Of a DNA stretch of 64,000 bases, positions 12,060 through 13,095 are shown piece after piece. Numbering within the stretch: position 1 is the stretch's first letter; each line of letters opens with the position of its first letter. Under the pieces are notes generated by a model. That model was not told the DNA's origin. It was given only the letters and a program-made list of their open reading frames with translations, and searched no databases. The translations under genes were made by a program, and so were the position numbers. This DNA comes from a virus. The DNA lies in IMG/VR virus record IMGVR_UViG_3300045988_123958; one strand, 5' to 3'.

Positions 12060-13095
12060 GCTTGTATGAATATAGTCATGGCACGTTATTCTTATATTTC
12101 TATAAGCGCTGACTATCTCTTACCCTCTAAGTAAATAGAGAGGAAACCATTTCGGCATTTAACTCACTTCGTTTCCTAAAATGAGACTACGTATCAATAG
12201 TAGCCCTACTTCCCCGCCCGGAAGGCCTGGGGAATAGTCGATACAGGTTATTTAGACGTTTTTCCAAGTTCTTTTATTAATTATATCAGCAATTGTACCT
12301 TTAGATACACCATATTTTTCTGCTAATTTGTCATAAGATAAATTTGTTTTTTCTCTATCTTCTCTAATTTGTTTAACTATATTAGCAGTTAACTTAGTAT
12401 GGCGCCCTTTTTGAAATACTTCTGGCATAATTAATCCATATCTTTTTCCAGTCCAAATATTTAAAAATGAATTATAATGTAATCTATTTACATATTTCTT
12501 TTTATATATTTCAGTAGGACTTTCTTTATTTAGATATGCTTTTCTTAATTCAATAACTTCTTCCTCTGTTAATTTAGCCTAACCCCAAATTTCTTTTTTT
12601 CTATATTCTAATGTTTTTGGCTTTTTACAATTCTTTCCGCCATCTTCAACATTATATCCATTGGGGACTTTTGAATTAAATTTATTTATATAATATATTT
12701 CAAGATTATTTAAAATCTCTACATCATCAATATCCTAAACTAAGATTTCATAAGAGAAATTTTCATAACCATATTTTCTAAAAGCCTAATGTAACAATGA
12801 ATTATACTCAATACTTTTAGGATTTTTATAATTACTTTTATGACATCTAAATCTCTATTCAGGATTTATTGTTTGACCTATATATTTTTTATTATTTATT
12901 TTATTAGTATAACAATAAATAATACCCATTTAATCACTTCCTTCATTTTTATATGAAAGAAGTCAGAAGTTATTTGACTATAATCGTCCAAATTTTCCCA
13001 CGGGATTCCCATGCGTTTTCCGTTTAGGGTTCCCCGTTAGCCTATTCATTTAAATAGACCCCTAGCGATAACTAGGAAAAGTTTTTCATTATCCC
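12060..13095 (-). mobile_element. group I intron (IA2, td-like) in dnaB with GIY-YIG endonuclease ORF; boundaries approximate (+/-30 nt)
   Basis: 5' part ACTTTTCC...GGGGTC...GGCTAACGGGGAACC...TCCCGTGGGAAA (td-like P3-P6); 3' part CGACTATTCCCC-hairpin-GGGGAAGTAGGG (td-like P7/P7.1), P8 hairpin CCTCT...AGAGG, P7' GAGATAGTC, P9 hairpin. Confidence 0.6.
12252..12929 (-). CDS. GIY-YIG homing endonuclease (intron-encoded), several in-frame TAG
   Basis: MGIIYCYTNKINNKKYIGQTINPE[TAG]RFRCH...; C-terminal HTH-like NUMOD region. Confidence 0.65.

Follow-up and report, generated by a model that had tools for sequence, protein, structure and literature searches.

A predicted group I intron encoding a GIY-YIG endonuclease in the dnaB helicase gene of a phage

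The dnaB gene of the virus record IMGVR_UViG_3300045988_123958, analysed as a single 64,000-nt stretch (hereafter the window), is very probably interrupted by a mobile, IA2-like group I intron that carries a GIY-YIG endonuclease gene and is inserted in phase 2 of the codon for Phe345. The intron, both exons and the open reading frame (ORF) of the endonuclease all lie on the minus strand. The exact junction, the covarying ribozyme core, the endonuclease domains with their catalytic residues, and the reading of TAG as glutamine are established here; splicing is predicted from the sequence. The initial annotation of this DNA had already proposed that dnaB contains a group I intron with a GIY-YIG endonuclease. 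That proposal holds: the intron is precisely absent from near-identical alleles, it is bounded by U(-1) and a terminal G, its P1 helix and core covary, and an I-TevI-like ORF sits in P6. The principal features are as follows.

14150-13117, minus strand: dnaB exon 1, with its ATG at 14150 and its final base U13117 as base 2 of the Phe345 codon (UU^C, where ^ marks the splice point here and below)
14084-14082 (codon 23) and 13976-13974 (codon 59), minus strand: in-frame TAGs in exon 1
13116-12082, minus strand: group I intron of 1,035 nt, beginning CGACCC and ending AACGUG, with terminal G12082
12929-12252, minus strand: putative GIY-YIG homing endonuclease gene, 225 codons plus TAA, in the P6 loop
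12857-12855, 12788-12786, 12737-12735 and 12584-12582, minus strand: in-frame TAGs in the endonuclease ORF (codons 25, 48, 65 and 116)
12081-11583, minus strand: dnaB exon 2, in which C12081 is base 3 of Phe345 and is followed by HDYIHTSMKILEE; stop TGA at 11585-11583

Judged by its sequence, the interrupted gene is a DnaB-family replicative helicase of a phage. From the ATG at 14150, the frame passes through two TAG codons to a TAA at 13091-13089, giving a product with the C-terminus DVKYIFDPNKRVPG. The downstream frame is open from about 12095 to the TGA at 11585-11583, and its translation includes CHDYIHTSMKILEE. Joining 13117 to 12081 gives ...DVKYIF^HDYIHTSM... in frame, for a protein of 510 aa encoded by 1,533 nt. 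In Pfam, the joined exons hit DnaB_C (6.6e-14) and the N-terminal domain of DnaB (2.3e-05). Walker A (GVGKT) is found in exon 1, and Walker B (FHDY) aligns with IIIDYLQ of Thermus DnaB 2Q6T, its Asp being the D of the HDY supplied by exon 2. In codons, the junction reads AUA UU ^ C CAU GAC UAU, with the break inside Phe345, two residues before the Walker B Asp. The predicted ligated RNA is AAAUAUAUAUU-CCAUGACUAU; in DNA letters the junction is AAATATATATT^CCATGACTATATTC, that is, ...ATATATT joined to CCATGACT.

Uninterrupted relatives of the gene locate this junction. A homologue search with the joined protein returned thousands of matches, the best of which are uninterrupted, 510 aa long and 99% identical. 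Such 99%-identical homologues read DVKYIFHDYIHTSM / DHDVKYIFHDYIHTSMKILEE across the junction region, and the uninterrupted homologues retrieved read IF(H/Y)DY, VFHDY or VALDY at the junction itself. Four syntenic contigs of 131-198 kb (L001-L004), about 92% identical to the window, also lack the intron. Their intron-less gene has the same length as the spliced gene of the window (1,533 nt) and differs from it at about 8% of bases, but in only five residues. The intron is missing from these contigs and from the 99%-identical 510-aa homologues to within a duplicated C: the first base of the intron and the first base of exon 2 are both C, and shifting the boundary by one base gives the same mRNA. 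The boundary was set at U13117/G12082, since no other placement provides both the canonical U(-1) and the terminal G. Another contig (L124) represents the same phage at 97.8% identity and has the intron. Among phage records, the nearest DnaB proteins are 38% identical and belong to Enterococcus, Bacillus SPbeta-like and Staphylococcus phages.

These boundaries correct those first assigned. The intron had been placed at 12060-13095, about 21 nt off at each end. Exon 1 had been thought to include all of YIFD, and the C-terminal part of the protein to start with MKILEEITRR at 12059. Exon 1 in fact ends at U13117, the D of YIFD is intron sequence, and exon 2 begins at C12081, 22 nt upstream of that ATG. 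No U/G splice pair had been found earlier because the Asp of YIFD was assigned to the exon, whereas exon 2 supplies the Asp of Walker B. The three junctions considered at the time (IFDYIHTSM, FDLHDY and FDPNCHDY) were all wrong, as uninterrupted homologues give IF^HDYIHTSM.

The RNA flanking the endonuclease ORF folds into a group I core. Thirty family members, with the ORF deleted or naturally ORF-less, were aligned (alignment A1); the structure was derived from the window sequence and projected onto the alignment, pairs were counted, and P3 was treated as a pseudoknot with P7. The resulting 77-pair model (P1, P3-P9, the P3/P7 pseudoknot and P7.1/P7.2) places 95.2% of 2,160 cells in standard pairs, a figure somewhat favoured by taking the structure from one alignment row, which does not affect the compensatory counts. 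Controls in which the 3' partners were slid by 1-3 columns have 37-47% of cells paired. Compensatory changes occur in 44 of the 77 pairs, and the covariation score is 0.447 versus 0.129 for shuffles, none of 500 of which reaches the observed value. The conserved P3-P9 core, the P4-P6 domain and J8/7 are all present in the model, whose elements are listed below.

13120-13090, minus strand: P1, exon UAUU (13120-13117) plus C13116 with guide GGAUA (13094-13090); splice wobble U13117·G13093
13114-13111 with 13102-13099, minus strand: hairpin ACCC/GGGU in the P1 loop
13084-13080, minus strand: P3 5' strand AAACU, paired with GGUUU at 12148-12144
13076-13072 with 13065-13061, minus strand: hairpin PX, CCUAG/CUAGG, compensatory changes in four of five pairs
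13057-13053 with 13046-13042, minus strand: hairpin PY, CUAUU/AAUAG; hairpins of variable length in relatives, by inspection only
13037-13032 with 13005-13000, minus strand: P4, ACGGGG/UCCCGU, enclosing P5
13029-13027 with 13010-13008, minus strand: P5, CCC/GGG, inside P4; for P4 with P5, pairing in 96.7% of cells and compensatory changes at four pairs
12998-12997 with 12247-12246, minus strand: P6 short stem, GG/CC
12992-12985 with 12258-12251, minus strand: P6 long stem, UUUGGACG/CGUCUAAA, compensatory changes in all eight pairs
12239-12234 with 12116-12111, minus strand: P7, GACUAU (R element)/AUAGUC, invariant in the 30 sequences
12233-12211, minus strand: P7.1, peripheral hairpin between P7 and P3'
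12204-12186, minus strand: P7.2, with conserved loop UAUUGAUAC
12185-12163, minus strand: optional third hairpin with loop UAGGAAACG, absent in L050, L014, L019 and L011
12148-12144, minus strand: P3 3' strand, GGUUU
12142-12137 with 12128-12123, minus strand: P8, CUCUCU/AGAGGG, 97% paired, four compensatory pairs
12122-12117, minus strand: J8/7, UAAGAG
12106-12091, minus strand: P9, CUUAUA-GAAA-UAUAAG, compensatory changes in six of six pairs, followed by AAUAACGU and terminal G12082

In its 5' half, the intron thus runs through P1, AUGAA, the P3 5' strand, PX, PY, GCUAA, P4, P5, P4' and P6 (with the ORF in its loop). The 3' half follows with P7, P7.1, P7.2, the optional hairpin, GAAAUGG, P3', P8, UAAGAG, P7', P9 with its GAAA loop, and AAUAACGUG. 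The core motifs quoted in the initial annotation (ACTTTTCC, GGCTAACGGGGAACC...TCCCGTGGGAAA, CGACTATTCCCC...GGGGAAGTAGGG, GAGATAGTC and two hairpins) are all present and exceed chance: the 18-nt motif CCTGTATCGACTATYCCC occurs three times in the window versus 0.04 expected, and the P4/Q pattern twice versus none expected.

P1 is the element that ties the ribozyme to its exon. All 30 sequences have the U·G pair at the splice site, and covariation is seen at the three adjacent exon-guide pairs on its 5' side (UA/AU/CG/GC; GC/CG/AU; GC/UA). Across host genes, P1 occurs as UAUU/GAUA, UGUU/GACA, UGGU/GCCA, CGGU/GCCG and ACGU/GCGU, and in the window UAUU is the sole full (4/4) complement to the guide within the 70 nt upstream of P3. 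P3 is paired in 99% of cells, with its middle pair appearing as AU/CG/GC/UA; in the wider family it takes the form of CCUACU/GGUAGG, CACUAU/AUAGUG and others. The peripheral hairpins between P7 and P3' have 97-100% of cells paired, with 11 compensatory pairs. One further pairing, of GGCUAAC (13043-13037) with GUUAAAUGCC (about 12162-12153), was rejected for this subfamily: whereas the 5' side does not vary, changes on the 3' side are uncompensated, and L050-type members lack the 3' side altogether.

On this model, the exon-1 end UAUU would pair with the guide GAUA to form P1, placing U13117·G13093 at the cleavage site. Exogenous guanosine held in P7 would attack after U13117. The terminal G12082 would next fill the P7 guanosine site, exon 1 would attack after G12082, and ligation would yield an mRNA for the unbroken 510-aa DnaB.

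The intron belongs to a very widespread, mostly metagenomic family. The CCTGTATCGACTATYCCC core was found in more than 118 IMG/VR loci and in 29 contigs of a collection of bacterial and archaeal genomes, including Megasphaera, Mycolicibacterium and Halochromatium isolates. In many of these loci, the same 5' core is found 700-1,000 nt further upstream, separated by a GIY-YIG ORF; about ten are without the ORF. At least 12 distinct loci, the window included, have an intron at the same dnaB site. Where junctions were read in these relatives (3' junction in L011, L012, L019, L028, L035, L038, L044, L047, L076, L107 and L114), exon 1 has U as its last base and the intron has G, and joining restores (V/I)(F/V)^(H/F/L)DY(I/V/M)H. 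Other recurrent insertion sites of the family are the Toprim DxD motif (..DADV^..), GyrB KG^LGEM and a GIY-YIG-domain gene.

The state of the ORF varies among relatives. L076 (IMG/VR 3300028048_000059) has a dnaB-site intron in which the ORF is cut to a remnant of the C-terminal helix-turn-helix (HTH), with about 157 nt between the Q and R elements; L050 and L052 have no ORF. These look like snapshots of endonuclease-gene decay, and they fit the usual cycle of gain, decay and loss.

In the window, the ORF is open apart from its TAG codons. That roughly 1 kb splits a DnaB-like gene and carries a GIY-YIG ORF (12929-12252), as first proposed, agrees with the Pfam matches. For the ORF, these are GIY-YIG PF01541 (1.6e-08) and HTH_3 at residues 188-221. 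Over its N-terminal 97 residues, the protein aligns with the catalytic domain of I-TevI (1MK0, E = 3e-5), and the catalytic positions aligned to it (IIY at the GIY position, YIG, R26, E77 and NGYN) are invariant in homologues. There are 680 homologues; in 12 that were aligned, identity is 73-99% over the full length, including 3' of every TAG and to the last residue, and the C-terminal HTH region is conserved in the homologue alignment (A2). The 3' strand of the P6 long stem, CGUCUAAA, overlaps the end of the ORF and contains its stop codon (12254-12252). A further hairpin lies upstream of the ORF start.

12962-12953 with 12946-12937, minus strand: hairpin CUUCUUUCAU/AUGAAGGAAG, enclosing the Shine-Dalgarno-like AAGGA of the endonuclease gene

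This hairpin has a 10-bp stem (-13.2 kcal/mol, z = -2.97 versus shuffles). An equivalent stem is kept in relatives, including the ORF-less L050, and because it is also present in such ORF-less relatives, a regulatory role can at most be inferred. By analogy with I-TevI, the putative enzyme would cut intron-less dnaB alleles in a mixed infection, and repair would then copy the intron in. Indirect support for such homing comes from the presence/absence polymorphism among syntenic phages and from the occurrence of this intron at one dnaB site in 12 distinct loci.

Comparison of codons indicates that TAG is a sense codon for Gln in this genome. Codon 23 of dnaB, TAG in the window, is CAA (Gln) in the intron-less L001. 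The TAG positions of the endonuclease are Q in homologues, nearly always so at position 116, and in relatives the Gln of YIGQ, a conserved residue, is itself encoded by TAG. Members of this endonuclease family have no TAG in some phages, and in others have it at conserved Gln positions. When TAG is not counted as a stop, the sequence of the window contained in ORFs of at least 600 nt rises from 34 to 50 kb, and in-frame TAGs are found in 26 of 79 non-overlapping minus-strand ORFs. They are concentrated in genes of one type.

588-1376, 12252-12929, 18682-19578, 25986-26675, 28620-29369, 39609-40349 and 62382-63026, minus strand: seven GIY-YIG ORFs of the window, with 3-8 in-frame TAGs each

TAG makes up 46% of Gln-type codons in these seven ORFs versus 9.7% in the other ORFs of the window (Fisher p = 2e-12). 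As the endonuclease ORF of the dnaB intron is open only if its four TAGs are read through, its product can be made only when TAG means Gln. Together with the stem-held ribosome-binding site, this dependence on TAG would probably limit endonuclease synthesis to a recoded, presumably late, phase of infection.

Several observations weigh against a mobile, IA2-like group I intron. P7 and most of P4 are invariant and give no covariation signal. P10 is weak, with only 2 bp (C12081 and C12080 with G13094 and G13095). Only AUGAA separates the guide from P3, with no P2 between P1 and P3, and PX and PY stand between P3 and J3/4. The Rfam group I model RF00028 has no match in the window at the gathering score (50 bits) or at E≤1, nor in 12000-13200 at E≤10, and no family member reaches 50 bits in a scan of ten ORF-less relatives at the gathering score. 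The window has six tRNAs (57.7-63.2 kb; Cys, Lys, Gly, Ser, Ser and Thr), none of them with a CUA anticodon. Lastly, there is no convincing co-conversion tract: differences from L001 run at about 8% across the gene, and the 16 within ±60 nt of the junction are a mild excess.

The Rfam miss is probably due to the 680-nt ORF in P6 and to the atypical periphery. The ORF-less relative L050 scores 24.2 bits against RF00028 (E = 5e-4), with P4, P5, P6, R, S and P9 in the correct order. The only matches in the scan of ten relatives were two unrelated group I introns in L026, at 13518-13821 (59 bits) and 14842-14969 (52 bits). That contig therefore holds several intron types, namely two Rfam-recognised group I introns and one family member.

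The main doubt that is left concerns whether the endonuclease is really made. The intron might splice while its endonuclease gene is decaying or untranslated, with the four TAGs acting as true stops; the product would then be a peptide of 24 aa, and in this phage the intron would not be mobile. The four in-frame TAGs themselves, the lack of a TAG-suppressor tRNA among the six of the window, and the truncated or lost ORFs of relatives (L076; L050 and L052) all point in this direction. However, TAG is sense elsewhere in the genome, including twice in dnaB, where one TAG corresponds to CAA in L001. The ORF also keeps its catalytic residues and its conservation (73-99% identity) to the last residue, and all seven GIY-YIG ORFs of the window are otherwise open despite their TAGs. 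A silent endonuclease gene is thus unlikely, if the one alternative of some weight.

A mobile intron is also strongly preferred over a split gene, in which two dnaB cistrons would yield two assembling polypeptides around an unspliced endonuclease cassette. This arrangement might be read from the ATG at 12059, which opens a 158-aa ORF, and from the gene calls in L124, which divide dnaB into three genes (353, 225 and 158 aa). Separate cistrons are nevertheless very improbable: the break splits a Phe codon that lies two residues ahead of the Asp of Walker B, leaving 22 nt of exon 2 (C-HDYIHTS) upstream of that ATG. In addition, the flanking RNA forms a complete covarying group I core with a guide that matches the exon, and intron-less alleles are otherwise near-identical. 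For annotation, this means that the true product is one 510-aa helicase and not three genes.

Just as little probability attaches to a group I intron with other splice sites, such as those giving FDPNCHDY or FDLHDY. AAU^...ACG^UGC is also a U/G pair, and CCCU/AGGG can pair locally. Yet such residues occur in none of the uninterrupted homologues retrieved, CCCU/AGGG belongs to the P1-loop hairpin ACCC/GGGU, and only UAUU complements the guide in the register common to all 30 family members. An intein, translated in frame and removed by protein splicing, is excluded by the sequence even though DnaB is a classical intein host (PMC4760082), since the exon-1 frame meets the TAA at 13091-13089 nine codons into the insert, and the insert ORF has only GIY-YIG and HTH_3 in Pfam and no intein-type domain. 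This ORF also begins with a start codon of its own, and structured non-coding RNA borders it on both sides, over about 190 nt and 170 nt. The two findings named in the initial annotation as refuting an intron, separate cistrons and an intein, thus both fail.

Few relatives of the intron are found among known phages. A megablast search of 50,697 phage records gave no match except the intron core of EF1/EF5, and apart from EF1/EF5 the same records gave a blastn-level relative only as a 65-nt stretch, 86-88% identical, in Prevotella Lak megaphages (MK250015 and others). In Enterococcus phage EF1, the DNA polymerase gene is split by an intron whose 3' core is 80% identical to that of the dnaB intron. 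No description of this dnaB intron was found in the literature.

Other family members are present in the window, all on the minus strand. A second intron, at 18520-19750, has a 3' core 84% identical to that of the dnaB intron and a 298-aa GIY-YIG ORF with eight TAGs. The N-terminal part of its host protein includes a hydrophobic segment, and the protein weakly matches families of coiled-coil type (DUF3450, DivIC); the intron interrupts this protein's own GIY-YIG domain (...YVGQAVN^IADRWKQH...), with a predicted splice of GCGGU^CAAUAC...AAUUUG^CAAUAUU. A third, at 25843-26885, splits the KG^LGEM motif of a GyrB/topoisomerase-like gene; its P1 is AAGGGU/GCCCUU, and its ORF encodes a 229-aa GIY-YIG protein with five TAGs. 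Introns of this gyrB type have a conserved CGUUAG(CCG) near P8 that is complementary to (CGG)CUAACG at J3/4-P4. At 28552-29443, a GIY-YIG ORF (29369-28620) lies directly upstream of a GyrB-like ORF starting MEAIRLRPGMFIG. This start resembles an internal GyrB motif, and the region may be the fourth intron of the initial annotation; no match to the family pattern was found in its core. Immediately 3' of dnaB, the window has a 767-nt insertion (10829-11595, minus strand) that neither the near-identical locus L124 nor L001-L004 shares. Its 234-aa product has repeated motifs rich in Cys and a DUF2726 domain, its ORF contains two TAGs, and the insertion is probably a free-standing mobile nuclease gene.

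These observations can be drawn into a joint reading, which is put forward tentatively. First, the endonuclease would be made only after the switch of TAG to Gln, so that early splicing of dnaB is uncoupled from delayed DNA cutting and the genetic code limits the spread of the intron. Secondly, the ribozyme would be one of a large IA2-like lineage, known mostly from metagenomes, whose periphery is rearranged (P2 absent, two hairpins between P3 and J3/4) and which Rfam does not recognise. If this is true, a TAG-laden endonuclease gene would be silent in phages with the standard code.

In practical terms, the Rfam group I model at its gathering threshold misses a widespread phage family, and intron counts in gut phage metagenomes that are based on it are probably too low. 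The exact junction and a covariation-supported family model allow many viral contigs to be annotated correctly. Nothing here alters the accepted working of group I introns. In phage replication genes, such introns with GIY-YIG endonucleases are already classical; what adds modest interest is the recoding of the endonuclease gene, together with the size of the family that Rfam misses.

Among known systems, the T4 td intron, a subgroup IA2 intron with the GIY-YIG endonuclease I-TevI, is one of the closest parallels. The P4/P5/P6 core of the dnaB intron is near-identical in style to that of td (CUAACGGGGAACC...AAUCCCGUG). Both have the endonuclease ORF in the P6 loop, and the two enzymes share a homologous catalytic domain (1MK0) and a C-terminal HTH. 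The ribosome-binding site of I-TevI sits, occluded, in a stem, and that of the dnaB-intron endonuclease is likewise in a stem. The host gene differs, being that for thymidylate synthase in T4 and dnaB here. The linker and DNA-binding part of the endonuclease are not detectably related to those of I-TevI beyond the HTH, and only the dnaB-intron ORF needs TAG to be read as Gln.

Subgroup IA2 is characterised by extra P7.1 and P7.2 helices between P7 and P3', and by a P2 between P1 and P3, with P3 leading straight into J3/4. The dnaB intron has P7.1 and P7.2. The Twort ribozyme (PDB 1Y0Q) has the order P7-P7.1-AGUA-P7.2-GAAAUGG-P3'-P8-J8/7-P7'-P9 (GAAA loop), like that of the dnaB intron. Compared with the usual td and Twort layout, the dnaB intron is without P2 and has two hairpins between P3 and J3/4. 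IA2-like is the best label because the P4-P6 sequences resemble td and the 3' half resembles the Twort ribozyme. The Twort orf142/nrdE introns and the DNA polymerase introns of SPO1 and EF1 are IA2 introns of Firmicute myoviruses; they differ from the dnaB intron in host gene and in endonuclease type (the HNH enzyme I-HmuI in SPO1).

Group I introns in helicase genes are reported for the Staphylococcus myoviruses K, G1, Romulus and Remus (summarised in PMC5526547). The trait they have in common with the window is a phage helicase gene with a group I intron. In Agate phages, the reassigned stop codon is over-represented in the endonuclease gene of an intron that lies in an early gene, and late production of this endonuclease has been proposed (Borges et al., bioRxiv 10.1101/2021.08.26.457843). 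The reassignment differs, with TGA read as Trp there and TAG as Gln here, where enrichment was measured in one window. The dnaB intron fits this idea of delay, and its TAG-rich endonuclease gene, with the others of the window, provides a TAG-to-Gln example of the published proposal that recoding delays the expression of intron endonucleases.

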